A stretch of DNA of 64,000 nucleotides, from the IMG/VR virus record IMGVR_UViG_3300001598_000039, positions 1 through 64,000 of that record. One strand, given 5' to 3'. The notes under the pieces are model-generated. The model saw nothing but the letters and a program-made list of their open reading frames with translations. It was not told the DNA's origin and did no database searches. The DNA comes from a virus (lineage: Duplodnaviria > Heunggongvirae > Uroviricota > Caudoviricetes). Shown here in pieces: positions 11,521-63,476 of this stretch; within the stretch, counting starts at the first letter, position 1, and every line of letters starts with the position of its first letter. Position numbers and translations under genes: made by a program.

Positions 11521-12111
11521 ATTGGCCTAGTCTCTGCATGTGTCCGTCTGTGTATGCTTGCCTGCGTAGGCGATCTTTTTAGTCAGGCCTTGTTTGTAAG
11601 CCTTTGCCTTCAGTTGCTAGCATGAGTCTAGATCACTAGCATGTCTTTGGTGTATGCTTCTATGTCTGCTATGGCCTATGTTGTCTAGTGTGTTTCCCTG
11701 GGTAGCGGGCATTCCTCCAGGCCTATACCTAGTACCTCTCTGGCGAGGTTCTTCAATTGGGCCTAGTCTTGGCGTGAAGTGGTCATCCTTCTTTTTGCTA
11801 TGGGCCTTTTCACTGCTGTTGGTTTGGTTTCGGCCCTGGACTGGGAAGCCTGAATTTGAAGTTTGGGGTTTCTTGGCATGGGACAGCTGGCTTGCGTTAA
11901 ATAAAGTCTAGCAAGGAAAGGCTAGCTTATGAGGATCAAGGAGTATTTGAACGCGGGTGGGTTTCGGCTGGAGAAGGTTGCGGTTGACTTGGACAAGGTT
12001 GACTGCATCTAGAAGCCATTAGAAGATGGCATTGGCTGCATTGTCGTCATCTAGGGCCAGAAGTACCCGGTACGAGAGAGCTATGAGGCGGTCTTGAGGG
12101 ACTTGGCTGGC

Positions 12112-12122
12112 GAGGGTAAATA
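12112..12122 (+). promoter_or_regulatory. Class III late-like motif GAGGGTAAATAA, 5 nt before ATG 12128
   Basis: Consensus (A/G)(A/G)GTAAATA(G/A) shared by 8 sites. Confidence 0.5.
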
Positions 12123-12127
12123 ATGGC

Positions 12128-13045
12128 ATGATGACGCAACAGCAGTTGAACTACGCCTATTGGCAGAGGATGCGGCAGCAGGAGCTGTACCGCAGGTATC
12201 GTGCTACGATGATGGGAGGGCAGTCGGCGCCTGAAAGGTATGTGAAGGTCGCGTTTGCGATGTCTGGCGGAGAAGGCCAGATCATGTGCGAGGGCGTAGA
12301 TGTGGGGACATCGGGCAAGATGGTCGCGGTTGGTGGAAGTGTGACTGTCGAGGCGAAGCCGGCGCCTGGGTATCGGTTTGTGCGGTGGAAAGATGATGCT
12401 AGCGCTGGTGCGGTGAGGACGTTCAGCAATGTCGTCGAGGACACGTCGGCGGAAGTCGAGCTGGAGTACACGCAGTCTGAGGCTGGGCTTTGGACGGAGA
12501 CTTGGGAGGGCGTGACACGGATCTTTGAGCGGCATCCAGGATGCAGAGACAACTGGGAGCTGCTGAAGTCCGACGGGTCGCATGACCCAATGACATGCGT
12601 CGTCTACAACCCATCGCGCGGAGCGTGGATGTATGAGGATGCTGGGTCTCCTTACCATTCGGCGGAGGCCAAGCGGACGGACCGGGCGTTTGACGTCGAT
12701 GTCCCAGAGGGAGAAGGACGAGTCGCTCGGACGATCCATTTCGTCTGGACGGCTACGCCGGACGCTGCGATGCTGACAGTCAAGGCATTTGAGGATGGCC
12801 ATCAGGCTGAGTCTGAGGACTTGGTCTTGGAGAACATCCGATATGACGAGGGCGACCCGAAGCGCAGGCTCAGCTACAACACGCCGTGGCTGATGCAGAA
12901 GGGCCAGGAAGTGACGTTGAAGGCTTCGGGCAAGAATGGCATGCAGTTCAGCCATTGGGAAGACAGCAGCACGTCGCCGACGCGTGACGTCACAATGGAC
13001 AGCGCCAAGTCTTTGGAAGCGCACTTCGTCTACAGGAAGCCGTAA
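12128..13045 (+). CDS. Late protein (305 aa) with N-terminal leader MMTQQQLNYAYWQRMRQQELYRRY shared with the gene at 35970
   Basis: Track ORF; paralogous N-terminus. Confidence 0.7.
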   Translation: MMTQQQLNYAYWQRMRQQELYRRYRATMMGGQSAPERYVKVAFAMSGGEGQIMCEGVDVGTSGKMVAVGGSVTVEAKPAPGYRFVRWKDDASAGAVRTFSNVVEDTSAEVELEYTQSEAGLWTETWEGVTRIFERHPGCRDNWELLKSDGSHDPMTCVVYNPSRGAWMYEDAGSPYHSAEAKRTDRAFDVDVPEGEGRVARTIHFVWTATPDAAMLTVKAFEDGHQAESEDLVLENIRYDEGDPKRRLSYNTPWLMQKGQEVTLKASGKNGMQFSHWEDSSTSPTRDVTMDSAKSLEAHFVYRKP

Positions 13046-13057
13046 GCTAGGCTGAGC

Positions 13058-14877: not shown

Positions 14878-15430
14878 TATTTACGTCCTGGAGCTGGTGC
14901 ATCTTCACTGCTAGGTTAGACAGGCGGTCAGAAAGGCGGAAGTCAGAGAGGACTGCTTCTGCCCATAAGATTTCTGGCACTTGGTGCTGCTCGATGAAGT
15001 GGCTTGGGTCAAGGCCCGTCTTCAGTTGCGATGTGATGCAGGCCTTAGCGTACTCAGCTGGAGTGAAGGCGTCAATGAGGTGCATCTGGTAGAAGCTGCT
15101 TGTCATGTCAGCGTCATGCTCATCCTTGAACTTGCCACATGTGAAGACACTAGAGTCAGCGAAGAGCAGCATGTAAGGCATGACTGGATGGCCGACCTTG
15201 ACGATGAACGGCCTGCGCCTTGTCCTAGACCTCAACTGGACTGCTGAAGTCTTCCCATCATGGAGGCCGTACAACGGGCAGCTGAAGGCGTTAGAGCAGT
15301 CCAGCCACTCACGGTACATCTTGCCATAGAATGCCTTGTGCATGGCGCACTCATAGCTCTCGCAGTGCTCGTTCGTCACGAGGTCGACTTTGAAGCCGAA
15401 CAAGTGGAAGACCTTGCTTGAGCTATTCAT
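14870..15430 (-). CDS. Hypothetical protein (~186 aa)
   Basis: Start moved to ATG with AAGGAGAA RBS. Confidence 0.55.
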   Translation of the reverse strand: MNSSSKVFHLFGFKVDLVTNEHCESYECAMHKAFYGKMYREWLDCSNAFSCPLYGLHDGKTSAVQLRSRTRRRPFIVKVGHPVMPYMLLFADSSVFTCGKFKDEHDADMTSSFYQMHLIDAFTPAEYAKACITSQLKTGLDPSHFIEQHQVPEILWAEAVLSDFRLSDRLSNLAVKMHQLQDVNNA

Positions 15431-16270: not shown

Positions 16271-16299
16271 ATTATACAACAACTGGGCGTTGTTGTCAA
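16271..16299 (-). promoter_or_regulatory. Consensus sigma70 promoter TTGACA-N17-TATAAT; its spacer contains the inverted repeat CAACAAC-GCCCA-GTTGTTG, which is also the hairpin just downstream of the PARP gene
   Basis: Seen directly on the minus strand. Confidence 0.7.
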
Positions 16300-16332
16300 C
16301 GCCCAGCATGCATCAGGTCTAGCTCAGTTGGA

Positions 16333-17562
16333 TCAGACCTTGAGCTCGACCAGGAAGTGGATCGTCGTCTGGTCTTCGCGATAGACCACCACCTCATCTT
16401 CACGGAGGTATGGGCCTTTATGGGCATGCACATGCGTTGTGCCAGGCTTGCGTTTTTGCAGCTTGTCCCATGTCATGCCGCTGCAGCTGCTGATCTCACT
16501 TCCGGTGCTGACGTTCAAGGCGCCCTTGTCTTCATCGACAGCGACGTCGAACACCGCCATCAGGCCGACATCAGACGTGCCACCTGACCAATACGAACCA
16601 CGAAGCGATGTGTAGTTGATGGACTTCGCCGCTTTTGGTGCAAAGTAAAGGCCCGCGCCCAACATTTTTCCAGTTACGTGGGCGTTGTTCTTGAGCAGCA
16701 GCCCATTCTTGATGATGTTCCACCAGTTCTCATTGCGCGAGCCGTGGAAGAACATCTTCGGCTCTTTGACGCCGTTGCTGCGGCAGAAGGCGTCAAACTT
16801 GTCCTGCGTCGTCTTGTTGATGATCCGCCAGGCCTGCTTGTAGCGAGAGCCAACCATGCCAAGGTGCTTGACGATCTGGTCTTTCTCCTGGTCGGTGACT
16901 TTGCGGAAGTCCAAGCCGAACTTCTCCAAGATCGTCTCTGTCTTTGACGAAGCGCCATCGCCGTTTGTCTTGGCCTTTGCAGCATTCGTCTCGAACTGCG
17001 TCTTGACGATGTTGAAGAGGTTCTGCTCGCGAGTCAAGATCGAAGGGATGTCGCTGTTGCTCTTGGCGAAGAACTTCGAGACGTCCGTCATCTTACGAGG
17101 CAGCGTACGGAAGAGCGTCATCAGCGTATCATTGAAGGACTTGTAGTCGCCGTCCTGCGTGTACAGCTTGTCGATCAGCTCTTGCGCCTTGTCGATCATG
17201 GTCTGCGTGATGTGGCCTTCATCAATGGTGTAGTTCTTCTTGATGACCTCATTGGCGTAGACACGCAGCTGCTTGACGAACTTGCGGACATCGACGTCTT
17301 GGATGTCGGCAAAGCCATCTGCACCGGTGCTGACTGAGCCATCGTCCTTCTTGACGAGCTCAGTCTGGTCGACGTAGCCTTTCTTCAGCTTGTTCTTCAG
17401 GATGCGGTCATACTCTTTGGCGTCATAGTGCTGGGTCGAAGGGTTCTGCCCGCCAATGCGCCCGTACTTCACCATGAAGCCGTTTCCGTCGGTGTCTGGC
17501 TGGATCTCATAGAACTTGTTGTTGTTGGCGCTTGTGACGCAGACTAAGTACTTGGCTTCCAT
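16333..17562 (-). CDS. Poly(ADP-ribose) polymerase-like protein (WGR domain plus PARP catalytic domain)
   Basis: N-terminal WGR (KYGRIGG); catalytic FFHGSRNENWWNIIKNGLL...GAGLYFAPKAAKSINYT. Confidence 0.8.
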   Translation of the reverse strand: MEAKYLVCVTSANNNKFYEIQPDTDGNGFMVKYGRIGGQNPSTQHYDAKEYDRILKNKLKKGYVDQTELVKKDDGSVSTGADGFADIQDVDVRKFVKQLRVYANEVIKKNYTIDEGHITQTMIDKAQELIDKLYTQDGDYKSFNDTLMTLFRTLPRKMTDVSKFFAKSNSDIPSILTREQNLFNIVKTQFETNAAKAKTNGDGASSKTETILEKFGLDFRKVTDQEKDQIVKHLGMVGSRYKQAWRIINKTTQDKFDAFCRSNGVKEPKMFFHGSRNENWWNIIKNGLLLKNNAHVTGKMLGAGLYFAPKAAKSINYTSLRGSYWSGGTSDVGLMAVFDVAVDEDKGALNVSTGSEISSCSGMTWDKLQKRKPGTTHVHAHKGPYLREDEVVVYREDQTTIHFLVELKV

Positions 17563-17597: not shown

Positions 17598-17609
17598 CTA
17601 TTTACTTCT
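17598..17609 (-). promoter_or_regulatory. Class III late-like motif GAAGTAAATAG upstream of the PARP gene (35-nt leader)
   Basis: Matches the class III consensus. Confidence 0.5.
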
Positions 17610-18426: not shown

Positions 18427-18453
18427 ATGGCATATTGTATCACGCGGGCGCGT

Positions 18454-18465
18454 AGAAGTAAATAG
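18454..18465 (+). promoter_or_regulatory. Class III late-like motif TAGAAGTAAATAG, 8 nt before ATG 18473
   Basis: Consensus match. Confidence 0.5.
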
Positions 18466-18472
18466 TCCTACT

Positions 18473-19003
18473 ATGGCAAAGTCACGCTACTTCAAGTTCT
18501 ACAACGCCAACCCATTTGGCAAAGCTCTTCCAGACTGTGCAATCCGCAGCACCAGCTTAGGCCTGAACATCCCTTATGCTGAAGTCTGCAAGCGCCTACA
18601 CTGCCGGTTCAAAGATGGACAAGGGCTTGTACGTGACACCGGAGTCGACCTCTACAAGATCCAGGACACCTTCGACAAGTACTTCGAGGAAGTGGAGAAC
18701 TTTGACTCTGAGCTGAACCGCCCGCCTGAGTTTGATGACTTCGTTGACCCATTCTACGACACCGGCGAGTTTGAGGACATCAGCAACCAGCCTACGCTTG
18801 AAGAGTGGATCGAGCAGTATGAAGGAACAGGCCCTTATCTGGTGAGCCTTGATTCGCCAAAGCGTGACAGCGGCCATCTGGTCTACGTCTGTACCAACAC
18901 GCCATGCTTCTATGACACATGGGACTGCTCTAAGCTCCATGTTGATGCCTTCATGCGGATCAAAGGGATCCGCGACAACGAGGCGACGAAGAACTACCGC
19001 TGA
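18473..19003 (+). CDS. Hypothetical acidic protein (176 aa)
   Basis: Track ORF. Confidence 0.6.
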   Translation: MAKSRYFKFYNANPFGKALPDCAIRSTSLGLNIPYAEVCKRLHCRFKDGQGLVRDTGVDLYKIQDTFDKYFEEVENFDSELNRPPEFDDFVDPFYDTGEFEDISNQPTLEEWIEQYEGTGPYLVSLDSPKRDSGHLVYVCTNTPCFYDTWDCSKLHVDAFMRIKGIRDNEATKNYR

Positions 19004-19804: not shown

Positions 19805-19893
19805 GTTCCAATTATAACACAGGCGCAGCTAGGTGTTCTGCCTAATTGCGCCGTTCACTTGTGACTATATGCCTAGTGCTCTTGGCGAGTGTC

Positions 19894-21751: not shown

Positions 21752-21782
21752 GACGCCATTATACCACAATCAGCAGTTCTTG

Positions 21783-22703
21783 TCAATAGGTGTTCATGGA
21801 GTAGTACTGCCTGTCATTGCAGTACAGCTCTCCGAGGCCGTCAAACTCGCCGACGCCATGGTACTTGCGCATCTGGTACGGCCAAAGCGACCTGTAGTCG
21901 AACTCTGTCCGGTCGCCATCTTTGAGGTATGCTCTAAGGCGCTCTCTGATCGCAGCCGGGTCATGGCTTGCAAGCAGGTCAAACTCCTCTTTCCGAACTT
22001 CGGTGGTGAGAGTCTGCGGGTTGACGATCAACTTGAAAGCCTCGCCATTCAGCACCTTGCAGCGACTGCTTGGCTTACGGTCAGGAACGTCTACACACTT
22101 GAGGTGGAAGAAGCCATGCACGGCGTCGCGATGCCTGCTGAGGCCAACACTTCCTTTGACAGGCACGCAGATGCTGAACTCCTTGTCTCCGTCGCTGAAC
22201 GTCAAGTCAATGTAGTCAGCGTACTCGCTCTCGTCGAACTTCAAGTCAACGCAGTTGAACTTCTTGTAGACTGGATCGCTGTCATCAAAGAAGAGCGGCC
22301 TGACTTCCATGATGAAGTCTCGTACGAGCTTGGACTTGAAGTCGTGCTCATCATACGCCCGATGCAGCTTGTCAAAGCGCTCAACTGACAGGCATCCGAC
22401 TTCTATGCTCTTGTTCACCTCACTGGCGCAAAGGCTCAAGTAGTGCTCATGCAAGCCGCGGAGAAGAGTCTCATGGCGTTCCAGCAAGTCAACGCACTTC
22501 CTAAGGTCGTCGATCCTGTCAAGTACTGAGACCTTGTCATCAAGCAGCTCAGACTCTGCTTTCCAGGTGTCGTGTATGAAGCCTTCACAAAGTCGGTTGA
22601 CCTTGCTTGAGGCAAGGCCATCTGCAGTCTTTGTCACCGCATCAGCTGCTTCACTGAACATCCTGTTGATAGACCCACAATCAATCACACGGCTGCTCGT
22701 CAT
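21783..22703 (-). CDS. Hypothetical protein (306 aa)
   Basis: GGAG RBS. Confidence 0.6.
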   Translation of the reverse strand: MTSSRVIDCGSINRMFSEAADAVTKTADGLASSKVNRLCEGFIHDTWKAESELLDDKVSVLDRIDDLRKCVDLLERHETLLRGLHEHYLSLCASEVNKSIEVGCLSVERFDKLHRAYDEHDFKSKLVRDFIMEVRPLFFDDSDPVYKKFNCVDLKFDESEYADYIDLTFSDGDKEFSICVPVKGSVGLSRHRDAVHGFFHLKCVDVPDRKPSSRCKVLNGEAFKLIVNPQTLTTEVRKEEFDLLASHDPAAIRERLRAYLKDGDRTEFDYRSLWPYQMRKYHGVGEFDGLGELYCNDRQYYSMNTY

Positions 22704-24577: not shown

Positions 24578-24696
24578 AAAGCGGGTTGTCCTTTGATTGG
24601 TGTACGGTGCTATTGTACTACATGCAAGGCTAAATGTTAACCCGGCATGGCGCACTCGCGCCAGAGGCCGGGAGAACAACTACAAATCAGAGCCGC

Positions 24697-25886: not shown

Positions 25887-25915
25887 ATTATACAACGTGC
25901 CGCGGTTCTTGTAAA
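25887..25915 (-). promoter_or_regulatory. Sigma70-like promoter TTTACA-N17-TATAAT for the MoxR gene, preceded by a terminator hairpin at 25919-25945
   Basis: Seen directly. Confidence 0.65.
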
Positions 25916-25972
25916 CTTAAAAGGCGCCGTCCTTCCGGAGGCGCCTCAATTGAGCTCAGCTCTAGCTTGTCC

Positions 25973-26236: not shown

Positions 26237-26304
26237 TGCTCTCTCCTGATGGAAAGTTGGCGATATGCCACGGACGCCCGCGGCTAGTTGATATTGTACA
26301 TGCC

Positions 26305-26898: not shown

Positions 26899-26911
26899 AG
26901 GTCATATTGTA

Positions 26912-28078
26912 TCACGCCTTGGAGCTGCTGTAAAACTCATCTGCCAGCTTCTTGTCTTTCGTTGAATCCACCAAGTTCTCCGGCTTGAGCGTCTTGTTGA
27001 GCTGCTCCAAAAGGCCTTTCTGCTCGGCGGTCAAGTTGGTCAACGGCTCAATTATGACTCTAGCCACTAGGTCGCCAACGCCTGAGGCACTCTTGATGCC
27101 GCCATAAGGTACTACAAGTGGATGCCCAGCGGTTGTGCCTGGGCTCATCTTGGCCTTCTTGTAGCCATACGCCGTAGGCACATCTACATCGCCGCCAAGC
27201 GATGCTAGCAGAGGCGATACATGCAAGACAGTCTGCAAGTCGTTGCCCGTTGTGCGCTTGAAGAGGCCAGACTCGTCTTCTCCTACGATGCAGACGATGT
27301 ACATGTTCCCATCGGCTCCTCCGCAAACTCCACACTCTCCTTTGCCGGCAAGCCTGAGGCGCGTTCCATCGGCTACTCCCTGTGGGATCTTGACTTCGAC
27401 ATCTTTACGGACTTTGAGGCGACGCTCTCCATTGCACTTCTTGCAGACATGCGCGCTGATTCCTGTTCCGCCGCAATGCCGGCATGTTGTGACTTGCTGC
27501 ATGAAGCCAAACGGCGTGCGCTGCTGAGAGACCTCTTGGCCAGACCCTCCACAATGAGGGCACTCTTCAAGCTTAGTCCCTTTCTCAATGCCAGTCCCGC
27601 CACAGCAGTCGCACGGCACAGTCGCACTGACTTCAAACTTCTTGGTGCAGCCATAGAGCATCTCTTTGAAGTTGATCTTCATGTGGAGCTGCATGTTCCG
27701 CCCATCTACTGGAGCATTGACATCTGGCATCTCCCGCTTAGGCTGCTCTCGATGCATTCCAAACGGGTCAAAGCCAAACCCTCTGAACTGCGATGCCTGG
27801 CGCCGCATGAAGTCGCGCAGGTCATCGTCATCCATTCCAAAGCCGTTTCCATGAGGCCCATCAAAGCCGAACTCATCGTACTGCTTCCGCTTCTCCGGGT
27901 CAGACAGCACTTCGTATGCCTCGCTGATGGCAGCAAACTTGTCTTTCGCAGCCGGGTCATCAGGATTGCGGTCAGGATGGTGCTTCATCGCGAGCTTGCG
28001 GTAGGCCTTTTTCAGGTCATCCGCACTCACGTCTTTGCTTACGCCAAGAGTCTTGTAGTAGTCTTCTTTCTGTGCCAT
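26912..28078 (-). CDS. dnaJ: DnaJ/Hsp40 co-chaperone (J domain with HPD, four CxxCxGxG zinc fingers, C-terminal domain)
   Basis: [13 protein letters not shown]...HPDRN; [32 protein letters not shown]. Confidence 0.85.
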
Positions 28079-28191
28079 GGCTTGCTTGCCCATTCAGTCT
28101 CAGTATGCCTATTCTACACCACCTGCCACCAAATGTTAAAGGCCGCCACCCGTAGGCAGTGGCCATCACCAACCACAAATTGGTCATTTCC

Positions 28192-29794: not shown

Positions 29795-29826
29795 TGGTTC
29801 CATTGTATACCTCTTTAGAGCAGATG

Positions 29827-30270
29827 TTAAGCCAGAACTGAGGCCAGGTACTTCGATGCGGCGCTCATGTCCATGGACCCTCGGAATGGCGCCAAGGTCT
29901 TCATGGCTTGGCCCATGTTCTTCTTCACCTTCTCGATGCCGGCATCCTGGAGGGCCTTCTGGATTGCGGCCTCCATCTCTTCCTGCGTCATCTGCTTCGG
30001 AAGGTATGTCTTGAGGACTTCAAGCTCAGCCTTCTCCTTTGAGCTCAAGTCGGTCCGCCCAGCAGCATCAAACTGGCTGATGCTGTCTTGATGGCTCTTC
30101 ACAGCCTTCTGCACCGCCTTGATGCAGGCTTCAGACGTCACCGGCTTGCCAGCATTGATGGTTTGGTTCTTGATGTCGGACATCAGAGCGCGCAAGCAGT
30201 CCCGCTTGACCACGTCTTTGGCAAGCATGGCCGTCTTGATGTCGGATTGGATCTGGTCGTATAGTTCCAT
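29827..30270 (-). CDS. GatB/YqeY-domain protein
   Basis: Overall similarity to the YqeY family; TTAACT-N17-TATAAT promoter and AGGAGAGAACA RBS. Confidence 0.65.
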   Translation of the reverse strand: MELYDQIQSDIKTAMLAKDVVKRDCLRALMSDIKNQTINAGKPVTSEACIKAVQKAVKSHQDSISQFDAAGRTDLSSKEKAELEVLKTYLPKQMTQEEMEAAIQKALQDAGIEKVKKNMGQAMKTLAPFRGSMDMSAASKYLASVLA

Positions 30271-30486
30271 TGTTCTCTCCTATGAGGACATTATAATATG
30301 GAAGCAAGTAGAAGTTAAGCCGCCTAGCTGACAGGCGGCTCCTCGATGCCATCATTCTTTAGCCTCTGTCTGGTTGCTCAGCAAAGAGGGTGGCGCGCTA
30401 GTCCTTCCTGCTGCCGCACGCCGTAGCAGCACATGTTTCGTCATGGATGGTTAGTTTGGTTTGCAGTTTGGCATCTCAAATCTAGG

Positions 30487-32013: not shown

Positions 32014-32119
32014 ATCTGTTTCCTTTGTGCACGACGCGCTTGTTTTCCAGTGGTAGTGGGATTGTGTTCGTTGCTGGGTGCGTCGTATGGTTGTATTGTA
32101 CACCAGAAGCCAATTGAAG

Positions 32120-32467
32120 TTAAGCCAGCTTTCCAGAATGGAGGAGCTTAAGGGCGGAGTTGACTTTCGATGCGATGCCGTCCGCATTCTTGGCGTTCAG
32201 GTATGTGTAGATGACGTGCTTCCGGATGTCAGCATCAAGAGGTATCATGGCGCCATCAACATAGTTGCGCATGTCTAGGATCTCAAAGTAGAAGTACTGG
32301 CCGCCGCGCTTCTTGTTCACATACTTGCCGTACTCGATGTAGGGTGACATCTTGTCCTTCCCTCTGAAGCTGATGATGCTGACGTCGTCGATGTCGTCGT
32401 TCCCAACATTGGTCGGCTTGTAGTTGAGCTTCTTCAAGAAGTCTAGCTTGTCAATTGGTTCTGCCAT
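32120..32467 (-). CDS. Hypothetical protein (115 aa), leaderless
   Basis: GCGTACAAT ACTATAGTT ATG. Confidence 0.6.
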   Translation of the reverse strand: MAEPIDKLDFLKKLNYKPTNVGNDDIDDVSIISFRGKDKMSPYIEYGKYVNKKRGGQYFYFEILDMRNYVDGAMIPLDADIRKHVIYTYLNAKNADGIASKVNSALKLLHSGKLA

Positions 32468-32494
32468 AACTATAGTATTGTACGCGCCTGGGCG

Positions 32495-32506
32495 TAGGGT
32501 AAATAG
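32495..32506 (+). promoter_or_regulatory. Class III late-like motif TAGGGTAAATAG (32-nt leader, AAAGGAAG RBS)
   Basis: Consensus match. Confidence 0.5.
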
Positions 32507-32538
32507 GCCTAGACATCAGCATACAAAGGAAGCATACA

Positions 32539-33144: not shown

Positions 33145-33147
33145 CCG

Positions 33148-35930: not shown

Positions 35931-35952
35931 AATGGTCTTATTGTACCCAGAT

Positions 35953-35964
35953 GGAAGTAAATAG
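35953..35964 (+). promoter_or_regulatory. Class III late-like motif TGGAAGTAAATAG, 6 nt before ATG 35970
   Basis: Consensus match. Confidence 0.5.
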
Positions 35965-35969
35965 CCAAG

Positions 35970-42249: not shown

Positions 42250-42263
42250 GGCCATATTGTACA

Positions 42264-42986
42264 TCAGCCAAGGTACTGGTCATTCACCATCGTGCTGTTC
42301 CTGAGCTTGCGGCATTCTGGGCACATGAATGCGTCGTACCCAACGACAGACATGTTCTGGCAGGCGCTCTCTATGGTCACGCTCTGGCCAGCCTTAACCT
42401 TGACCTCTTTCACCAGCTTGTCGAATGTAAGCTGGACGTCAAAGTCTCGCCGGAAGATGACTTCTGCCTTGTCCTGCTGCCTGATGACCAAGTTGTTGAT
42501 GCCATACGTAGGAGCAATGAACCCTATGCCAATACCTTCGGTGAAGATGAGCCTAGCGACAGACTTGAAGTAGGCGTGGCTTCCAAGAGGAGTTGCAGCA
42601 ATGAGGCCATCTGCCATGACATTCTCCATGTACAGGCGGCCATTCACTTTGAGGTCAAACCTAAGGCATGACGTCAAGTCTAAGTTCTTCAAGGTGAGCT
42701 CAGACATAGCCACTTCAGACCAATCTAGCCCTCCAACCTGGCACCTGATGAGTGGCTGGACAGTGATCTTGAAGCTCGCATCAGCCTTTCCAGTGCCAAG
42801 GAAGTCATTCAAGATGTTGGCATGCTTTTGGCACAGCCCATAGTTCCTGATTGGAGCTATGGCTTTCTTGAAGTTCTTTGCTCTTGCCTTAGAGAGAAGC
42901 GTTCCGTCGCCGCCATATGCGATGGCAATGGACTTGTTCTGCTCTTCGAACTTCTTGATCAGGCTTTCTGCGGTATCACTCATCAT
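42264..42986 (-). CDS. NAD+ kinase
   Basis: GGDGT and DGLIAATPLGSHAY motifs. Confidence 0.75.
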   Translation of the reverse strand: MMSDTAESLIKKFEEQNKSIAIAYGGDGTLLSKARAKNFKKAIAPIRNYGLCQKHANILNDFLGTGKADASFKITVQPLIRCQVGGLDWSEVAMSELTLKNLDLTSCLRFDLKVNGRLYMENVMADGLIAATPLGSHAYFKSVARLIFTEGIGIGFIAPTYGINNLVIRQQDKAEVIFRRDFDVQLTFDKLVKEVKVKAGQSVTIESACQNMSVVGYDAFMCPECRKLRNSTMVNDQYLG

Positions 42987-43848: not shown

Positions 43849-43929
43849 GGAACTATTCTACACCGCCGGTGAGCAAAAGTTAAGCCGCACCCTTGCGAGC
43901 GCGGCTCTTTGATTCATAGAGGATAGCGC

Positions 43930-45063: not shown

Positions 45064-45114
45064 AGTCTAGTGTCCTCAGTCTACTTACTGTTCAGTCCTT
45101 GCTCAAATTGTACC

Positions 45115-46089: not shown

Positions 46090-46101
46090 AAGCCTATTAT
46101 A

Positions 46102-46596
46102 TCATGCTTGTGGCTTGCGGTCAAAGTCCCAATCTTGCCATGGCCCAGGATAGCTCTTCCATTCATGGTAGGTGTCAATCTCATACTCTGCGGTGAAACG
46201 AGTGTTTTCCTCGAAAGAGAGCATGATTGTATGCCCGTCATAGCCGTACTTCTCCAAGACGCTGTACATGTAGCCAACAATCAGCACTCTGCATGCCTCA
46301 TTGAACATCTCTCGTTCCTCGCGGTCAAACATCTGGCCGTACTTGCTGTCAATGATGGTCTTGCACAGCTCTTTCCAGCCTTGCTCTTTGATGTAGGTGT
46401 CGCGATGCTTGTTTCCAGCGCAAGTCACATAGCTCCTGTCAAGGCAGATTTCCCTCGAAAGCCCTTTGACCAGAGTCTTGAGCTTGTCAAACTCCTCTTC
46501 AGTATAGTCCTCCTCATCAACTGTGCAGTCTAGGCAGACATGCTTGAACGTGATGACCAAGTCTGGATATGCTGTTGTCTTGCGCCTACGAGGCAT
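46102..46596 (-). CDS. Hypothetical protein (164 aa)
   Basis: Track ORF. Confidence 0.55.
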   Translation of the reverse strand: MPRRRKTTAYPDLVITFKHVCLDCTVDEEDYTEEEFDKLKTLVKGLSREICLDRSYVTCAGNKHRDTYIKEQGWKELCKTIIDSKYGQMFDREEREMFNEACRVLIVGYMYSVLEKYGYDGHTIMLSFEENTRFTAEYEIDTYHEWKSYPGPWQDWDFDRKPQA

Positions 46597-46837: not shown

Positions 46838-46864
46838 AGCAACATTATACCCGTGGGCGATAGG

Positions 46865-46876
46865 CGAAGTAAATAA
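46865..46876 (+). promoter_or_regulatory. Class III late-like motif GCGAAGTAAATAA ahead of the fibre genes
   Basis: Consensus match; GAAGGG RBS before ATG 46907. Confidence 0.5.
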
Positions 46877-49900: not shown

Positions 49901-50042
49901 CATCAGCGTCGAAGTGGTTGGCAAGTCGACAGTCACATCTGCTGAAGTCACAAACCTCACCGCGACAGCAGCTAAGGTCACAAACCTAACGGCTGACTCG
50001 CTCAACAACATCTACATTGGAGACCGCAGCAAGACTCTCTAG
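46907..50042 (+). CDS. Large tail-fibre-like protein (1045 aa); ends at an in-frame TAG
   Basis: Track ORF from the internal ATG MSTYTDL; 25-aa LSxGLSGxxxDLSAEVSG-type repeats near the C-terminus. Confidence 0.7.
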
Positions 50043-51278: not shown

Positions 51279-51316
51279 CCAGGGCAAACGACAGAATCTA
51301 AAAGGTAAGTAAGAAC

Positions 51317-54300: not shown

Positions 54301-54580
54301 ATCTACGACTTCGACTGCTGGTAACGGCACAAAGGTCACTATCAGCTTGCCAGTCGGAACGCTCCGCGTCGTAATCGCCTACCCAAGCCGCTTCACAAGC
54401 AACCTTGCATCCGTTACGGACAAGAACGGCATGGGAGCAAACGTCCGCAGCGCGTTCAATGCATCTCCAATCCTCCGCACAGTGAAGGACGCCGGCAACA
54501 GCGATGTTGAGTACAAAGTCTTCTACACAGACTTCGCATCTCCAACGGACAAGGCTAATGAGTACACCGCAACAATCTAA
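51317..54580 (+). CDS. Large tail-fibre-like protein (1087 aa) with the same 25-aa repeats at its N-terminus
   Basis: Track ORF; AAAAGGTAAG RBS. Confidence 0.7.
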   Translation: MSTYTQEQPNIFILNDKNIVHGLNGDTPLGHNPIPSLSLHVESYKTLSGMADGISAVVDSLSSGLSGKIDQLELSANGISGYVDKLELSASGISGIVNSLSAGLSGKIDALELSVKGVSAVVDALSAGLSGKIDAVQLSVAGLSNYTKDLALSATGLSDSISALALSVNGVSGVVDANKAASEQRDVYLSGVISNIISADLYALSGEVSAVSSALDLKIETLSTDLSDTVNKQFVHISGDTIGGSLSVSGTTTISSDLIAKKSLYVGTNVTTTEDVNTIVLGDRTSPAGRDSFVWNGNNGAVYDVTTHGTHGTFNINPEGGLNGLYIGQETLSTTFSKYQLTATMPTDLSDFTNGAGYALSADVPTKVSQVENDAAFLSAEDFDLSSDTTNHKIILVAGDKTYSIDTTDFIKSRMIYKAQITTNLSGEKVLRLWFSASETDFIDIVLTDLVKIYTAGYGISVDNEYRIHVTDVIAKKVDLDAVSGAVDTINNSTVPYLSGVISGTLSDITDLRLYADSLSNTTVIDPGEKYPTYKGTIPTLSSAIAKLRDEIGSGMTLAGHIQLARNTSSPYVPTYNDDTLSGIFRYFNLAEQGKLRSGNVYEVSITGLDYTSTTDLQNSFFMTKDATPIKLAHRDHIIIHSHDGGDIRLEDVANYMEVIPAVRYFEYYRLSGATDALCAAVDYLSGTPSNKVMISTDCTLEALSAEGYPYNTGDILIIKSTILPSIGTNPAKYQHTAYVYDDEVDDFKQMDDNYALDHVYVNNEFTYSGPWTKIGNIDKQSTDIISVATTQCSLTDMFKQIFSKKEAPTKTKTPAETLTVKNGTATLNSYYEAGTTITPALTANISRGCFTPWHVLSSGLDTYRQNPTGLSDFTLQITDTYGQSVTSSYTSADTRTGAQLTGETNNYNMLSTLTPVKLVIDKDYVATAKVTYNTSNFALDNEGETTTLKFDGTTLTKTSGTVIPYYKVFYGTKTSKAQDMSTCDSAYIRGTGMASTTSTAGNGTKVTISLPVGTLRVVIAYPSRFTSNLASVTDKNGMGANVRSAFNASPILRTVKDAGNSDVEYKVFYTDFASPTDKANEYTATI

Positions 54581-54593
54581 GGAACACTAAACT

Positions 54594-56612
54594 ATGGCAT
54601 TCACACCAGACAACCCGATCCCAACAACGCTGAGCTCGATTCCACGCCTCGACTTCGCGGTGGGATTTGCACCACAGACGGCGTTTCCGCTGAACGTGCT
54701 CGGGTACTTTGAACACTACAATGAGGCGCTTTCCGCTGCTGAAATGGCGAAAGACGCTGGATCTAGCGAATCGCGGTACTACATTGGCCAGCAACTGACG
54801 GTGTTTGACCGCACTACTGGCAAAGTGAAGACATACTACATCTCACCAGAGCATACCTTGGTAGAGCTTCCTGATGAGAAGACGATTGGTGACAACTTTG
54901 TCTGGCTCAGCGGCAACAACACCGCCGCCCGCAACCACCTAGTCTGCGGCAACAATGAGCTTAGCGGCAACAACCGCTTCATCTATGGCCAAACGGACAT
55001 CTCAGCCACGCAGGTTTCAGACTACTTCTACTTTGGCACGCCTGAATCCGGCCTAAGCGCGGTTAAGTCGACAGCAACACTCAGCTCCAACATGTTCGAC
55101 TTCACGCTGATGAATGCGGACGTCGCCAATGGCATGGGCGAGCTGAAGTCTAAGAACTACTCTCACGCTGAAGGCGATGCCACTAGTGCGCTTGGTATGT
55201 GCAGCCATGCTGAAGGTTGCTCAACTATCGCCAAGATGCCATACTCTCATGCCGAAGGTTTTGAGACAATGGCAGGTGATCCAACACAAGGATTCTCTGC
55301 AGGCCAAGCGAACCATGCTGAAGGCTACCAAACGAGTGCGTTTGGCGGTTCGGCAAACCACGCTGAAGGCTACAAGACATATGCTGACTCTGCCTATGCT
55401 GCTCACGCAGAAGGAATTGAGACAAGCGCAACTGGCTTGGCATCTCACGCTGCTGGCGTAAGTGCGGCGGTCTCAGCACAGTATGCCTATGGATGGAACG
55501 GCGACACTGGAGTCATTTACAAAGACCACGGCCAAGGCACGTTCAACCTTAACCCAATCGACGGCCTTAAGGGGATCTACATCGGTGACAAGACTCTCAG
55601 CGGAATCATCTCAGCGGAGATCAGCGCGGTCTCATCTCTCCTTGAACTGAGTTCGAACGGCATCAGTTCAGTCGTCAAAGCGCTCTCAACTGGTCTCTCT
55701 ACTGAACTCAGCAACCTTGAGCTGAGCGTCAGCGGCATCAGCTCAATCACCAATTCGCTCAGCACCGGCCTCTCAACCGCGATCGATGCTAAGGTTTGGG
55801 TCCTCGATCCTGAAGCGACATCAACTCCAATGTCAGCTGGAGCAAACACTGACCTCTCTATCATCAAGCTGACCGAGACTGAGTACGGCGCAATTGCATC
55901 TGATCCAACTCTCTCCGCGCAGCTCAATGACGGCAACAAGCTGTACATCATCTCCGCAGACTACATCAATGCCTACGGCGAGTCTATCCGCAACTTGGTG
56001 CTTCCAACTGATGCGACTGAAGACTATGCTGCAACAAAGGGCTATGTTGACACAACCGCAAGCCAGACTTCTGGAGCGCTCGAGCTCAGTGTTGGCGGCC
56101 TTTCAAACTACGTCAACCTGCTGGCACTGAGCGCAAACGGCATCAGCGGAGTTGTCAGTGCATTGGAGCTCAGCACAAATGGCATCAGTGCGGTGGTCAA
56201 GTCACTTAGTTCTGACCTGTCTGACGCAATCAACAGCAAGCTCTGGATCTACGACCCAGCCGCAATTGCATCACCAGTCTCAGCTGGAGCTGCAAGCAAC
56301 CTCTCAGTCATCAAGATTGACAAGGACAGCTACGATGAGATCATTGCTGACTCTACTCTGTCAACTCAGCTGCTCAGTGGCGACCGCCTCTACATTGTGG
56401 AGTCTGAGTACAACGACAGCTACGGCAAGCAGATCAAGAATGTCGGTGCTCCTACTGAAGATGATGATGCGGTGACGCTCTCGTATGTTGACACCAAGTT
56501 GGCGACATTCAAGAGCCTCTACACCCAGCTTACAGGAATCAGCCAAACGTCGCAGCTGTCTGACATTATCGACGCGGTGGTTGCAATCAAGAATGCTCTG
56601 AGCGACTTCTGA
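54594..56612 (+). CDS. Tail-fibre protein with xHAEG repeats and the 25-aa repeats
   Basis: YSHAEGDATSALGMCSHAEGCS...ANHAEGYQT...ANHAEGYKT...AAHAEGIET. Confidence 0.7.
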   Translation: MAFTPDNPIPTTLSSIPRLDFAVGFAPQTAFPLNVLGYFEHYNEALSAAEMAKDAGSSESRYYIGQQLTVFDRTTGKVKTYYISPEHTLVELPDEKTIGDNFVWLSGNNTAARNHLVCGNNELSGNNRFIYGQTDISATQVSDYFYFGTPESGLSAVKSTATLSSNMFDFTLMNADVANGMGELKSKNYSHAEGDATSALGMCSHAEGCSTIAKMPYSHAEGFETMAGDPTQGFSAGQANHAEGYQTSAFGGSANHAEGYKTYADSAYAAHAEGIETSATGLASHAAGVSAAVSAQYAYGWNGDTGVIYKDHGQGTFNLNPIDGLKGIYIGDKTLSGIISAEISAVSSLLELSSNGISSVVKALSTGLSTELSNLELSVSGISSITNSLSTGLSTAIDAKVWVLDPEATSTPMSAGANTDLSIIKLTETEYGAIASDPTLSAQLNDGNKLYIISADYINAYGESIRNLVLPTDATEDYAATKGYVDTTASQTSGALELSVGGLSNYVNLLALSANGISGVVSALELSTNGISAVVKSLSSDLSDAINSKLWIYDPAAIASPVSAGAASNLSVIKIDKDSYDEIIADSTLSTQLLSGDRLYIVESEYNDSYGKQIKNVGAPTEDDDAVTLSYVDTKLATFKSLYTQLTGISQTSQLSDIIDAVVAIKNALSDF

Positions 56613-56668
56613 TAAGCCGCCAACGTACGCAACAATGGCCAAGCTGCAAAGCTTGGCCATTTGTGTCT

Positions 56669-59864: not shown

Positions 59865-59866
59865 GG

Positions 59867-60661: not shown

Positions 60662-61466
60662 TAGGCTTCTCCCATTTGATGTGCTTGCCGGCGTCGATGG
60701 TCATTAGCGGGAACTTGGTGAATTGCAGTCCGCTTGCTTCAAGACAATGGAAGAAGCATGACGTGTACCGCTCAAAGACGTACGCCAGCCAGTATGGATG
60801 CATCTTCTTCTGGTCAACTCCAGCATGGTCAAGCTCTTCTAGCAACTGTTTGGCTGCCGGGAATGCGATCGAGCCAAACAGCCTGAACAGCTCAGTCTTG
60901 CATGTGAAGATGTTGCATAGGTAGTTGGTGCTCTCTTTGAATGCCTCTTCCATCTTGGTCTTCAGCGTCTGAGGAGTGCACTCCAAGAAGATCTCAAATG
61001 CCCGCTGTGGCCATCCTTTAGGCAAGATGTCCTCTCTAGTCAAGAGCTCAATCTGCTCCCAAATGTAGGTAAATGGTGTCTTTGTCTTGTCTAGGACGTC
61101 GAATGCTGGATGCAGGATGCCATTGGTCTTAGACATCAAGATCGCTTGCAGTTGCTGTTCAGGAGTAAGGATGTAGTCTCGATCAAGCTGCTCAGCTTTG
61201 ATGTTCAACAGCGGTCCATTGACTTGCGCCGAAGTGAAGAAACGGCGGTACTGGCAATAACCAATGTAGTCACAGCCAAAGTCCTGCAAGTTGTACCACA
61301 ACCAGAAGAGCTTTGGTGTCTCATCTGGCCGCACAACTCGGTCAAAGATGAAGTTTTGACACTTGATGGCGCAGTCTGACTCTTGACCTCCAAACCGAAT
61401 GAACGGCAAGTTCCAGTCAACACCATGCCGGTGGTCGCATGCAAAGATCCTGATTGTAGGGTTCAT
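60654..61466 (-). CDS. DUF4422-family putative glycosyltransferase, leaderless (GCGTACAAT ATGCCTG ATG)
   Basis: IGYCQYRRFF motif; start moved from the GTG at 61487. Confidence 0.55.
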   Translation of the reverse strand: MNPTIRIFACDHRHGVDWNLPFIRFGGQESDCAIKCQNFIFDRVVRPDETPKLFWLWYNLQDFGCDYIGYCQYRRFFTSAQVNGPLLNIKAEQLDRDYILTPEQQLQAILMSKTNGILHPAFDVLDKTKTPFTYIWEQIELLTREDILPKGWPQRAFEIFLECTPQTLKTKMEEAFKESTNYLCNIFTCKTELFRLFGSIAFPAAKQLLEELDHAGVDQKKMHPYWLAYVFERYTSCFFHCLEASGLQFTKFPLMTIDAGKHIKWEKPNA

Positions 61467-61487
61467 CAGGCATATTGTACGCGGCAC

Positions 61488-63458
61488 TCAAAGGCTGTCA
61501 ATGCTCTCAACTGCACCTTCAGCATTGACCAACTTCATGAACTCGGCTCCAGTCAAGACCTTGATTCCAAGCTCCTTGGCCTTCCTGTTCTTCGAAGATC
61601 CGGACTCGGTGTCATCGGTCACTAGATAGGTCAGCTTCTTGTTGACTCCACTCTTGACTTCGTATCCAGCAGCCTCAGCCAAATGCTCAGCTTCAGACCG
61701 AGGAACAGAAAGCGACCCGGTGAAGCATACTGAGCCCTTCAGCGCAGGCTTTGCGCCAGACGTGTCTCCGGTGCACTCGGCGGGCTTGTATCTAGGGCTA
61801 TGAATGAACTTATTGAGGTCAGCAACGGCATCTCCAAGGTCATCTAGGAACCTGCTAAGAGCGCTGTCACCTACGCCATTCGGCAGGCCGAGCACTTTGA
61901 TAGATTCATCAAACCACACCGACATGTCTGTTCCAGCTTCGACCTGCTCTAAGATCTTGTCAAGGCCAAAATGGTCAACAATCTTACCAACCGTCGTCTC
62001 AGCAATGCCATGGAAGTTCAGTGAAGCAAAGATGTCCTTCTTCCGGCTAGTGAAGACCTTACTGTCAAGCTCATCGTAGAGGCCAACTTCAGATTTATGC
62101 TTGCTGTCCGGCTTGAAGGCTATCAGGTCATCATAGCTGAAGATCCCAAACCGCTCAAGAGTTGCAACTGAGCAGTTCTTGACATCAAGCCGCTTGATGA
62201 AATGCTCAATCTGCAGCAGTTTCTGGTCTTTGCAGCATTTGTTCTTGCACCGCAAGTTGACACCATCGCGCTCAAGCTTAGTTCCGCAACAGGTGCAGAA
62301 CTCTGGAACGGGGACATCAATGCACTGCGCGCCGCTTTCAACGACTCCAAGAAGCTTCGGTATGACGTCGCCTGATCGGCAGATCGAAACAATGCTTCCA
62401 AGCTTGACGCCTTTCTTAGCCATGAAGTCAAGGTTATGTAGTGTGCACTTGCCAACCATGACTCCACCAATCTCAATCGGGTCTAGGATGCCAACTGGGA
62501 CGTAGTAGCCATCTTTGCTTGGACCCTGGAACTCGACTTCAAGGAGTTTGGTGTCGAACCGCTGCAAGTTTGTCTTGAAGGCGACCTGCGCATCAGGACG
62601 GTAAGTGTCTTCATTGCGGTATGACCCATCAGAGATGACTAGACCATCAGTATCATAGGGGAAGTCTTGCGTCGCGAAGCTGAAGAGCTCATCAACAACA
62701 TCTTCTTTGACCGCAGGCACAAGCTTCTTGTTCTTCTTTCCCTTCTCCACGGAGTATCTGTAGGAGTCGATGTCATAGAAGATGTGCCATGCAGTCTCAA
62801 ACCCATTCTCCTCAAGGAAGGCAAACTGCTCATCCTTAGTGTACTTGTCTCCAAGCACGGTGTAAGCAACAAAAGAGACGTCTTGGATGTCCTTAGGATC
62901 CCAATCTCCTCGGTTGATCAGCCCAGCAACGACGTTTCGAGCAGCCTTCATGTTTCGCTGCTTCTGGATGTCTTTCTTAACTACCAATTCGCCGCGGATG
63001 TAGGTCTCTTCTTCAGCGTTGATCTTCTGCTTGAGGCCGTTGATGTAAGGAGCTTTGTCCGTGATGTCACTTCCAACCATGCCATCGCCACGCGTCGCAA
63101 AAGATACTAAGCTTCCTCCAACATACTTTGCGATGCCAGAGATGCCGTCGATCTTGGCTGAGACATTCACCTTGCCAGTAGTATGCTTCGCTAGGTACTT
63201 GCAAACCTTGTCAGGCTCTTCATACTTTAGCTTGTCGAGGCTGCCCGCAATCCAGCGATGGGTGACCTTCTTAGCAGAGCTGCTTTCGGCTGAGACATCG
63301 TTCAGCGCATCACGGAATGAGTCGTACTCCTCTGCGCTGATGTTTGCCTGAAGCTGCTCTAGAAGAGCATCGAACTCCTGGTCAGACATGGTTGGCGACC
63401 CGGCTCGGTAAGCCGCGTTTGCCGCAATGAGGTCTTCTTTGGCTTTGGTGATGTCCAT
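61488..63458 (-). CDS. ligA: NAD+-dependent DNA ligase (LigA)
   Basis: KxDG adenylation motif (SAKIDGISG), Cys4 zinc finger CTCCGTKLERDGVNLRC, HhH and C-terminal BRCT-like region; leaderless GGTATAGAAT AGACTC ATG. Confidence 0.8.
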   Translation of the reverse strand: MDITKAKEDLIAANAAYRAGSPTMSDQEFDALLEQLQANISAEEYDSFRDALNDVSAESSSAKKVTHRWIAGSLDKLKYEEPDKVCKYLAKHTTGKVNVSAKIDGISGIAKYVGGSLVSFATRGDGMVGSDITDKAPYINGLKQKINAEEETYIRGELVVKKDIQKQRNMKAARNVVAGLINRGDWDPKDIQDVSFVAYTVLGDKYTKDEQFAFLEENGFETAWHIFYDIDSYRYSVEKGKKNKKLVPAVKEDVVDELFSFATQDFPYDTDGLVISDGSYRNEDTYRPDAQVAFKTNLQRFDTKLLEVEFQGPSKDGYYVPVGILDPIEIGGVMVGKCTLHNLDFMAKKGVKLGSIVSICRSGDVIPKLLGVVESGAQCIDVPVPEFCTCCGTKLERDGVNLRCKNKCCKDQKLLQIEHFIKRLDVKNCSVATLERFGIFSYDDLIAFKPDSKHKSEVGLYDELDSKVFTSRKKDIFASLNFHGIAETTVGKIVDHFGLDKILEQVEAGTDMSVWFDESIKVLGLPNGVGDSALSRFLDDLGDAVADLNKFIHSPRYKPAECTGDTSGAKPALKGSVCFTGSLSVPRSEAEHLAEAAGYEVKSGVNKKLTYLVTDDTESGSSKNRKAKELGIKVLTGAEFMKLVNAEGAVESIDSL

Positions 63459-63476
63459 GAGTCTATTCTATACCAG

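Follow-up and report, generated by a model that had tools for sequence, protein, structure and literature searches.

Three families of promoter-like sequences in 64 kb of a tailed-phage genome, one of them resembling the T4 late promoter

The stretch of DNA analysed here, referred to throughout as the window, comprises positions 1 to 64,000 of the IMG/VR virus record IMGVR_UViG_3300001598_000039 (Caudoviricetes), and the subject of this study is a set of three promoter-like sequence families found in it, designated class I, class II and class III. The window (64 kb) has a G+C content of about 53% and is densely coding, with a non-coding share of 10.5%. Genes were called with a codon model trained on the window itself and were compared with the public gene calls. 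About 27 small open reading frames (ORFs) are packed into positions 1-10,830, with minus-strand ORFs up to 3333 and plus-strand ORFs from 3651, and are followed by 1.3 kb of non-coding DNA (10,830-12,127) without a convincing ORF. From 12 to 64 kb the genes lie mostly on the minus strand, interrupted by plus-strand islands at 12128-13045, 18473-19003, 32539-35173, 35970-37247 and 46907-56612.

The recognisable genes encode an NAD-dependent ligase, an exonuclease, a PARP/WGR protein, a MoxR-like AAA ATPase, two vWA-type proteins (DUF2201 and DUF2828), DnaJ, YqeY, a dTDP-rhamnose and glycosyltransferase cluster and a SleB-type cell-wall hydrolase. No family matches were obtained for three large fibre-like proteins, apart from a weak match of one to a PHROG tail protein. 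The window appears to be part of an 87.7-kb JGI contig. A Logan contig provided an extension of 7.4 kb past the right end of the window, giving 71 kb in all, in which genes for a DnaB-like helicase, a helicase loader, a UvsX-like fragment and HSP20 were identified.

Class I was found in the block of small ORFs. A scan of positions 1-12,000 with a sigma70-type consensus returned 33 matches where 4.9 were expected, and 27 of these make up the class. The alignment of the 27 copies gave the consensus cTTAAGTTAAC(A/G)-N11-cTTTGTTATAATAgc, in which TTAAC(A/G) or TTTACA is followed by a spacer of always 17 nt, which ends in TGn, and by TATAAT. The hexamers match the sigma70 consensus at 10-11 of 12 positions, the TG of the extended −10 is present in all 27 copies, and the 18-base class I pattern has 20 exact matches against an expectation of 0. 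Conservation among the 27 copies continues past the hexamers (CTTAAG upstream, TTTGT, and AGC downstream). Downstream of each copy lies a small ORF, at most sites with a strong Shine-Dalgarno (SD) sequence (AAGGAG, GAAAGGA) and a leader of 20-60 nt; at 3-5 sites the ATG comes 6 nt after the hexamer. In two strain variants of 96% identity (contigs L007 and L008) substitutions fall in the class I spacers and the hexamers are kept. The exact pattern had a single match in IMG/VR, unrelated and attributable to chance. The 11-kb block looks like a host-takeover region. A preliminary description of the window had proposed a near-consensus sigma70 early class within 12047-63472; such a class exists, but its place is 1-10,950.

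The upstream word of class I, CTTAAGTTAACAA, is built from two overlapping palindromes, CTTAAG and GTTAAC, and also occurs three times without any −10 hexamer at about 11161-11243, where two of the three copies form the perfect palindrome TTGTTAACTTAAGGCCTTAAGTTAACAA. The word may bind a protein, for instance for early shut-off, besides acting as a −35 element. We noticed further that an independent Logan contig (L006, 4065 nt) stops exactly at window base 1, within a class I promoter, and that the variant contig L007 extends about 450 nt beyond the left end of the window. The break at base 1 is probably an assembly artefact at repeated promoters and not the end of the genome.

Class II consists of 21 sites, all on the minus strand (Table 1). 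A search for TA[CGT]AAT with an ATG 4-10 nt further on gave, in 12-64 kb, 14 sites of a leaderless type at which the ATG begins an ORF with coding potential; the other seven sites are leadered. In 12-64 kb the arrangement TA[CGT]AAT-N6/7-ATG was present 13 times against 1.0 expected (standard deviation 0.97, maximum 4, in 200 dinucleotide shuffles), and GTACAATA occurred nine times against 0.26 expected. At the leaderless-type sites the hexamer is separated from the ATG by 6 nt (n = 8), 7 nt (n = 4) or 9 nt (n = 2). The start codon is ATG in every one of them; when GTG and TTG were scanned for separately at the class II distance from a hexamer, no gene start came up. This placement would put the transcript start on the A of the ATG or beside it and make the mRNAs leaderless. 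The seven leadered sites are accompanied by an SD and precede the genes for the MoxR-like protein, DnaJ, YqeY and both vWA proteins as well as two small genes.

A −35-like hexamer, with 4/6 or more bases matching and a spacing of 16-18 bp, was found at 17 of the 21 class II sites (81%) compared with 12% of random positions. These hexamers are of the type TT(A/G/T)AC (TTGACA, TTAACA, TTTACA, TTAACT and similar), and two sites are 12/12 matches to the consensus, TTGACA-17-TATAAT. The extended −10 TGn was seen at four of 17 scanned sites and at 19811, that is at about five. The TACAAT form accounts for 11 of the 21 hexamers, and a G stands directly 5′ of the hexamer in 14. Because 17 of 21 sites have a −35 and only about five have TGn, class II is of the ordinary sigma70 type, and the extended −10 label given to it in the preliminary description does not hold. 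The same description had placed the class at 18 or more minus-strand genes, had read it as leaderless and had reported longer-leader versions before MoxR, the vWA proteins and DnaJ. The 21 sites agree with this, the spacing and the exclusive use of ATG fit the leaderless reading, leadered sites were found before those genes, and the six ATGs that were named (18426, 26898, 32467, 35930, 61466 and 63458) all open ORFs with a positive coding score.

The class II positions also revise several gene starts, to 16264 for 16309, 21751 for 21769 and 29794 for 29803, and the start of the last gene of the window moves 17 codons upstream from where it is publicly called. The ATG at 46837 opens the gene for a 79-aa protein with 2-3 predicted membrane segments; therefore, the fibre begins at ATG 46907 and not at TTG 46752. 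Terminator-like GC-rich hairpins are fused to the next class II −35 at 16282-16307 and 43882-43907, and further such hairpins lie at about 28140-28180, 30318-30345 and 25915-25950, before the sites at 28139, 30318 and 25915. Here the −35 lies within or beside the 3′ arm of the hairpin, in compact terminator-promoter modules.

The third family, class III, is defined by the heptamer GTAAATA. The window contains nine copies against 1.19 expected, a number reached by none of 100 shuffles, and in 12-64 kb no other 7-mer is as strongly over-represented. Among 105 permutations of the same letters it ranks first in 12-64 kb (7 copies against a mean of 0.94) and third over the whole window, where two class I words rank higher. 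Eight of the nine boxes lie wholly in the non-coding DNA, the ninth overlaps with a gene at its final codons, and in all nine cases the next gene lies downstream in the same orientation. Two more copies, both in promoter positions, are present in the 7.4-kb extension. In an alignment of the 11 boxes, position −3 is G/A, position −2 is A, position −1 is A/G and position +1 is a purine, and outside this GRR-type flank, the box and the +1 purine no conserved position was found. The sites were picked by exact heptamer match, so that the invariance of GTAAATA in 11/11 follows from the selection. The strain variants have five substitutions in the 12 nt immediately upstream of the 1303 box and none in the box itself. 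Only one of the nine window sites has a −35 match of 4/6 or better at 16-18 bp, which is the random level (12%) and agrees with the absence of a −35 given in the preliminary description. All eight boxes listed there were found, the one at 14878 had been missed, and the gene at about 1300 was misassigned, as the ATG 8 nt after that box opens only six codons and the real gene starts at 1246.

The distance from the box to the ATG is 5, 6, 6, 8, 9 or 10 nt at six of the 11 sites, which is the usual place of an SD, and GTAAATA could on this ground be taken for a signal in the mRNA, for translation or processing, that replaces the SD and is not a promoter. The remaining five boxes lie 31-90 nt upstream of the ATG with a separate SD in the leader, the heptamer has no complementarity to the anti-SD sequence, and the short divergent regions described below leave no space for another promoter upstream of it. 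A role as SD substitute was rejected on account of the SD at the distant sites and this lack of room, and we regard it as very improbable.

GTAAGTA, with one mismatch to the box, was found as five words, three of them intergenic and upstream of genes at 45082-45088(-), 46734-46740(+) and 51305-51311(+). One of the intergenic words sits in a class II leader and another 5 nt before the ATG of a 1087-aa protein. They are ambiguous, being either weak variants or chance occurrences, and were left out of the class III count.

All six plus-strand units in 12-71 kb start with GTAAATA and none with a class II promoter. Five of the boxes stand back-to-back with the −10 hexamer of a class II promoter on the opposite strand (ATTGTA or ATTATA, 11-23 nt, GTAAATA). 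The divergent intergenic regions 18427-18472, 35931-35969 and 32468-32538 are 39-71 nt long, and each contains one class II −10 and one GTAAATA. Regions this short, down to 39-46 nt, have no room for any other plus-strand promoter, and the box is therefore best read as a promoter. A polymerase at one of two back-to-back promoters would overlap the other, and we speculate that the two exclude each other.

As TATTTAC is its reverse complement, GTAAATA might instead be explained as a −35-like TTTAC belonging to the opposite class II promoter, and in the pairs 18434/18458 and 46844/46869 a TTTACT indeed lies 17-18 bp from the opposite −10. Over the five pairs this spacing is 17, 15, 10, 18 and 22 bp and hence unconstrained, six of the 11 boxes have no divergent partner, and the invariant bases of the box reach beyond TTTAC. 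From the unconstrained spacing and the six partnerless boxes it follows that an opposite −35 is not the main role of GTAAATA; we give this explanation hardly any credence.

Between the promoters of three of the five back-to-back pairs an element GGGCG-N0-2-TAG was observed (18440-18457, 32483-32498 and 46850-46868), which could be the site of a regulator.

Another possibility is that the host holoenzyme reads class III as a weak promoter, or as one helped by a DNA-binding activator, with TAAATA as a degenerate −10 and no new sigma factor involved. The distance of GTAAATA from the ATG equals that of the class II −10 hexamers, and the GGGCG element upstream of the box could be the activator site. 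The last T of the −10 hexamer is nearly invariant for primary sigma factors, and TAAATA is without it. A degenerate −10 would also leave unexplained the preceding G and the following A, which are invariant in 11/11 boxes, here by exact-match selection; moreover, the −35 matches are at the random level and the GGGCG element is absent at eight of the 11 sites. We find this explanation rather unlikely.

Table 1. Class I block and individual class II and class III sites of the window. Leaderless-type refers to the predicted placement of the transcript start at or next to the ATG; lengths are in nt.
Class	Position (strand)	Sequence	Type or distance to ATG	ATG	Downstream gene	Remarks
I	2..10937			 	 	Block; minus copies up to 3541, plus copies from 3580; scan and alignment
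II	63465..63493 (-)	TTAACA-17-TAGAAT	Leaderless-type, 6	63458	NAD-dependent DNA ligase	
II	61474..61501 (-)	TTGACA-16-TACAAT	Leaderless-type, 7	61466	First gene of glycosyltransferase operon down to 56669	
II	46844..46873 (-)	TTTACT-18-TATAAT	Leaderless-type, 6	46837	79-aa protein	Back-to-back with class III 46869
II	46096..46124 (-)	TTGACC-17-TGaTATAAT	Leaderless-type, 6	46089	Metallophosphoesterase	
II	45107..45112 (-)	TACAAT	Leadered, 43	45063		GTAAGTA at 45082-45088 within leader
II	43855..43883 (-)	TTAACT-17-TAGAAT	Leaderless-type, 6	43848		−35 overlaps 3′ arm of hairpin 43882-43907
II	42256..42283 (-)	ATGACC-16-TACAAT	Leaderless-type, 6	42249	dTDP-sugar epimerase	Rhamnose/glycosyltransferase operon down to 37250
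II	35940..35968 (-)	TTGGCT-17-TACAAT	Leaderless-type, 9	35930	Exonuclease	Back-to-back with class III 35957
II	32477..32482 (-)	TACAAT	Leaderless-type, 9	32467		Weak −35; back-to-back with class III 32499
II	32095..32123 (-)	TTAACT-17-TACAAT	Long leader		DUF2828/vWA gene (stop 30487)	
II	30290..30318 (-)	TTAACT-17-TATAAT	Leadered	30270	YqeY-like	SD AGGAGAG
II	29802..29830 (-)	TTAACA-17-TACAAT	Leaderless-type, 7	29794		
II	28111..28139 (-)	TTAACA-17-TAGAAT	Leadered, 17	28093	DnaJ	
II	26906..26934 (-)	TTTACA-17-TGaTACAAT	Leaderless-type, 7	26898	Phosphoesterase	
II	26293..26298 (-)	TACAAT	Leadered, 56	26236		SD GGAGAG
II	25887..25915 (-)	TTTACA-17-TATAAT	Leadered, 41	25845	MoxR-like AAA ATPase	SD present
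II	24612..24640 (-)	TTAACA-17-TACAAT	Leadered		DUF2201 metallopeptidase/vWA-like gene	
II	21758..21786 (-)	TTGACA-17-TATAAT	Leaderless-type, 6	21751		Perfect consensus
II	19811..19816 (-)	TGtTATAAT	Leaderless-type, 6	19804		No clear −35
II	18434..18462 (-)	TTTACT-17-TGaTACAAT	Leaderless-type, 7	18426		Back-to-back with class III 18458
II	16271..16299 (-)	TTGACA-17-TATAAT	Leaderless-type, 6	16264		Perfect consensus; −35 inside hairpin 16282-16307
III	46869..46875 (+)	GTAAATA	31	46907	Fibre/tail operon 46907-56612 (9.7 kb)	Operon terminates at hairpin 56634-56661
III	35957..35963 (+)	GTAAATA	6	35970	425-aa protein	Distant family members carry choloylglycine-hydrolase-type Pfam domains
III	32499..32505 (+)	GTAAATA	33	32539	Operon 32539-35173	SD AAGGAAG; operon includes SleB-type cell-wall hydrolase (33811-34731)
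III	18458..18464 (+)	GTAAATA	8	18473	176-aa protein, no assigned function	
III	12116..12122 (+)	GTAAATA	5	12128	InlB B-repeat protein	
III	17599..17605 (-)	GTAAATA	36	17562	PARP/WGR protein	
III	14878..14884 (-)	GTAAATA	0 or 9	14877 or 14868	BspA-type LRR protein	Overlaps end of upstream gene
III	2969..2975 (-)	GTAAATA	10	2958		Inside early block, directly after GC-rich hairpin (2976-3010)
III	1303..1309 (-)	GTAAATA	about 56	1246	34-aa gene	

The gene content of the classes differs. Class II heads genes for the ligase, the exonuclease, DnaJ, the MoxR-like and vWA proteins and the rhamnose pathway. Class III heads the fibre operon, the operon with the cell-wall hydrolase and the genes for the InlB B-repeat protein, the BspA-type LRR protein and the 35970 protein (the 425-aa protein of Table 1), all of which would fit late expression.

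The best explanation of these observations is, in our judgement and with moderate confidence, that a large, uncultured lytic phage employs three promoter-like families, of which classes I and II are of host type and class III is of T4-late type and depends on a phage factor. Classes I and II would both be read by the host RNA polymerase with its primary sigma factor, as their match to the consensus suggests. The 27 very strong class I copies would drive the small SD-bearing genes of the takeover-like block, and the looser class II set would drive minus-strand genes for replication, repair, chaperones and sugar modification, with 14 of its 21 sites predicted from their geometry to give leaderless mRNAs. 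Class III, GRR-GTAAATA-R, would by analogy be a promoter of the T4 late type consisting of a −10 region only, at which the host polymerase is guided by a late specificity factor of the phage. It would drive every plus-strand unit (fibres, cell-wall hydrolase and surface-repeat proteins) and a few minus-strand genes, and its close boxes would yield late mRNAs whose leader is very short or absent. The order I, II, III is one that we infer from the gene content and by analogy with T4, SPO1 and AR9, and the nature of the trans-acting factor is inferred by analogy.

A simpler scheme has two stages, in which classes I and II are not separate temporal classes but are both of host sigma70 type and active from the start. 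They share the architecture TT(A/G/T)AC(A/T)-17-TAnAAT, some class II sites (16271-16299 and 21758-21786) are perfect consensus promoters, and no MotA/AsiA-like or other appropriator was detected. Class I is nevertheless confined to one 11-kb block with its 27 copies conserved well beyond the hexamers, the three CTTAAGTTAACAA boxes without a −10 hint at the binding of a protein such as one for shut-off, and the translation signals contrast sharply, with a strong SD in class I and leaderless starts in class II. The two-stage scheme is possible, although we consider it on the whole unlikely.

The three-class explanation also has to face several observations that count against it. Start sites, leaderless status and timing are all deduced from the DNA sequence, and classes I and II would share the host holoenzyme, with nothing in the sequence that forces a different timing. 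Class III also heads the genes for PARP and HSP20 and two genes of the early block, which are not classical late genes; these could be expressed in more than one phase, as in AR9 (PMC5312081). Comparison of essentially all ORFs of the 71 kb with Pfam and PHROGs identified no sigma factor, gp55, gp33, clamp or RNA polymerase; this search covers the window and the 7.4 kb of an incomplete genome in which most proteins are orphans. A phmmer search of PDB with four orphan class II proteins gave no sigma factor, gp55, gp33, clamp or polymerase either. DnaJ matched GTDB genomes from several phyla at 32-37% identity over its full length, with higher identity only on two short N-terminal fragments, and provided no host assignment. 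No related phage of comparable base composition was found.

The phage-encoded late sigma factor or activator that had been suggested for class III is plausible, but without a candidate gene in the DNA searched. An alternative is that class III is the promoter of an RNA polymerase encoded by the phage, either single-subunit or non-virion multisubunit as in phiKZ and AR9. GTAAATA is short, AT-rich, near the start and without a −35, like the late AACA-N6-TA/G of AR9 and the late TATG of phiKZ (PMC5312081); PARP, MoxR, DnaJ, HSP20 and the many orphans suggest a large genome, and no sigma-like gene was found in the 71 kb. The same 71 kb contain no RNA-polymerase gene or fragment, and GTAAATA equals the T4-family late box at 6/7 bases and is unlike any known phage-polymerase promoter. 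We consider a phage polymerase an improbable reader of the box, and a factor acting on the host polymerase is retained as the preferred explanation.

Taken together, the observations made on the window in the preliminary description are confirmed except on three points that are corrected here: where class I lies, how many class III sites there are and whether class II has a −35. The three promoter families are real and separable, with counts far above shuffled and composition-matched controls, and the interpretation is partly supported. A more far-reaching proposal joins all elements: an undescribed lineage of large phages would run a GTAAATA late programme through a factor unrelated to gp55, most of its middle and late mRNAs would be leaderless as opposed to the SD-bearing early ones (a programmed switch in translation), and middle and late promoters within 11-23 bp of each other would act as a mutually exclusive middle-to-late switch. 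As a whole this proposal is a bold one and we doubt that all its parts hold. The motifs amount to a testable transcription map with 27 early units, about 21 host-type units that are mostly of the leaderless type and 9-11 late-type units. Such a map serves a phage lineage without a cultured relative and with mostly orphan genes, and it flags orphans with a likely virion or late function. If the map is confirmed, it would extend the T4-type late box to a phage without detectable T4-like genes and would provide a clear case of a shift from SD to leaderless initiation between early and later genes.

Relatives of the phage were scarce. A search of 50,697 phage records, T4-like phages included, gave no match for the structural genes (megablast and tblastn) and otherwise just widespread DUF2828 matches, and scanning two class III proteins against IMG/VR gave nothing useful. 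Relatives of the 35970 protein were found at 26-72% identity on short contigs; those fetched are AT-rich and have neither GTAAATA nor TACAAT boxes upstream. One metagenome scan gave relatives at 25-29% identity only. The closest relatives of the 35970 protein (63-72% identity; L003 1103-1160 and L016 445-500) are on AT-rich contigs, and an in-frame TAG in them aligns with glutamine (MRQQQ in the window, MR*QQ in the relative). These AT-rich related phages appear to use a recoded stop codon, with TAG as sense.

Two class III genes have in common, at 12128-12200 and 35970-36040, the N-terminal segment M..QQLNYAYWQRMRQQ.LYR.Y, and their N-termini are paralogous. Their C-terminal domains differ, with InlB B-repeats in the 12128 protein and, in the 35970 protein, the family with choloylglycine-hydrolase-type distant members. 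Relatives carry either the same N-terminus or a collagen/fibre-like one instead, and the shared N-terminus may be a virion-attachment module. Upstream of the HSP20 gene, GTAAATA is followed by a leader that contains a 9-bp stem (GCTTGCTAG...CTAGCAAGC) and, after it, an SD (L005 4696-4795, about 66.1-66.2 kb in window numbering and so beyond the window). This leader could be regulatory, possibly a thermosensor.

Several auxiliary genes are unusual for a phage, namely those for PARP with WGR (16333-17562), the MoxR-like ATPase with its two vWA-type partners and a full-length DnaJ (23054-25845, 26912-28093 and 30487-32050), to which HSP20 is added just beyond the window. The stretch 9436-9733, a possible replication origin, is AT-rich, with iteron-like repeats of 13-15 bp (TTTAGAATCTAGA, TCTAGGTTTAAGA) and with GC-rich GCGCGCCTGCGCGCG boxes on its flanks, which are found again at 10338-10360. 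The non-coding region 10830-12127 has a strong skew of G over C and T over A on the plus strand, no Rfam match, and short tandem repeats of GGTGTCCAGGA (x2.8, 11323-11353), GTATGGT (x3.3, 11385-11407) and GCGCTTA, and could be a packaging site, a replication site or a non-coding RNA. No tRNA genes and no Rfam matches were detected in the DNA searched.

The relation of the three classes to known systems may be described as follows. SPO1, with its host-takeover module, and T4 and T5, with their early promoters, exemplify the clustered strong early promoters of large lytic phages. Class I is like these in its near-identical, near-consensus copies, each with a small gene and a strong ribosome-binding site, in a block near the end of the contig. 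It differs in that its −35 TTAACA lies inside the longer conserved word CTTAAGTTAAC, a word present at 11175-11243 with no −10. Leaderless phage transcripts are represented by lambda cI from PRM and by middle as well as late genes in the Thermus phages phiYS40 and P23-45. The class II −10 ends about 6-7 nt before the AUG as in these cases, from which class II differs by mostly keeping a good −35 and by the use of a strong SD in the early genes of the same phage. Transcripts of phages frequently lack a leader (PMC5312081).

The T4 late promoter, TATAAATA at −13 to −6, is read by gp55 together with gp33 and the gp45 clamp (PMC1524935). In T4 relatives the first T of the box is poorly conserved, the late box of the Aeromonas phage Aeh1 being CTAAATA from −12 (PMC1524935) and that of RB49, KVP40 and S-PM2 (A/T)ATAAATA. 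GTAAATA has six of seven bases in common with the Aeh1 box, with a G at the first position (−12), and TAAATA is common to T4. The resemblance to the T4 late promoter pointed out in the preliminary description is thus borne out, with the match to the T4-family box in register (PMC1524935). Like the T4-family promoters, class III has a 7-8 bp A/T-rich TAAATA box without a −35, in part just upstream of putative virion and lysis genes that lie largely on the opposite strand to the earlier genes. Unlike them, it has a purine-rich GRR flank, often stands 5-10 nt from the ATG, where the leader would be absent or very short, and is found in a phage with no gp55, gp33 or gp45 homologue detected in 71 kb. 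Were transcription to begin 6 nt beyond the box, as it does in T4, leaders of 0-5 nt would result at the six close class III sites; the 5-10 nt between these boxes and the ATG are compatible with such a start.

Outside the T4 group, the jumbo phages CBB and GAP32 have a predicted T4-late-like ATAAATA together with a gp55-like gene (PMC5259590), and rV5 has a predicted T4-late-like box, TggTAaAAtA, and no gp55, gp33 or gp45 (PMC3606486). Class III is like the boxes of CBB and rV5 a computational prediction of a late box that resembles TATAAATA and lies upstream of structural genes, and is unlike them in the sequence GTAAATA, in the host and in its frequent back-to-back pairing with host-type promoters. 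Early, middle and late promoter motifs are routinely predicted in phage genomics, and there are earlier examples of T4-late-like boxes in phages outside the T4 group. The most unusual features of the window are the extent of predicted leaderless initiation, its contrast with the SD-using early genes and the back-to-back pairing of the two later promoter classes.

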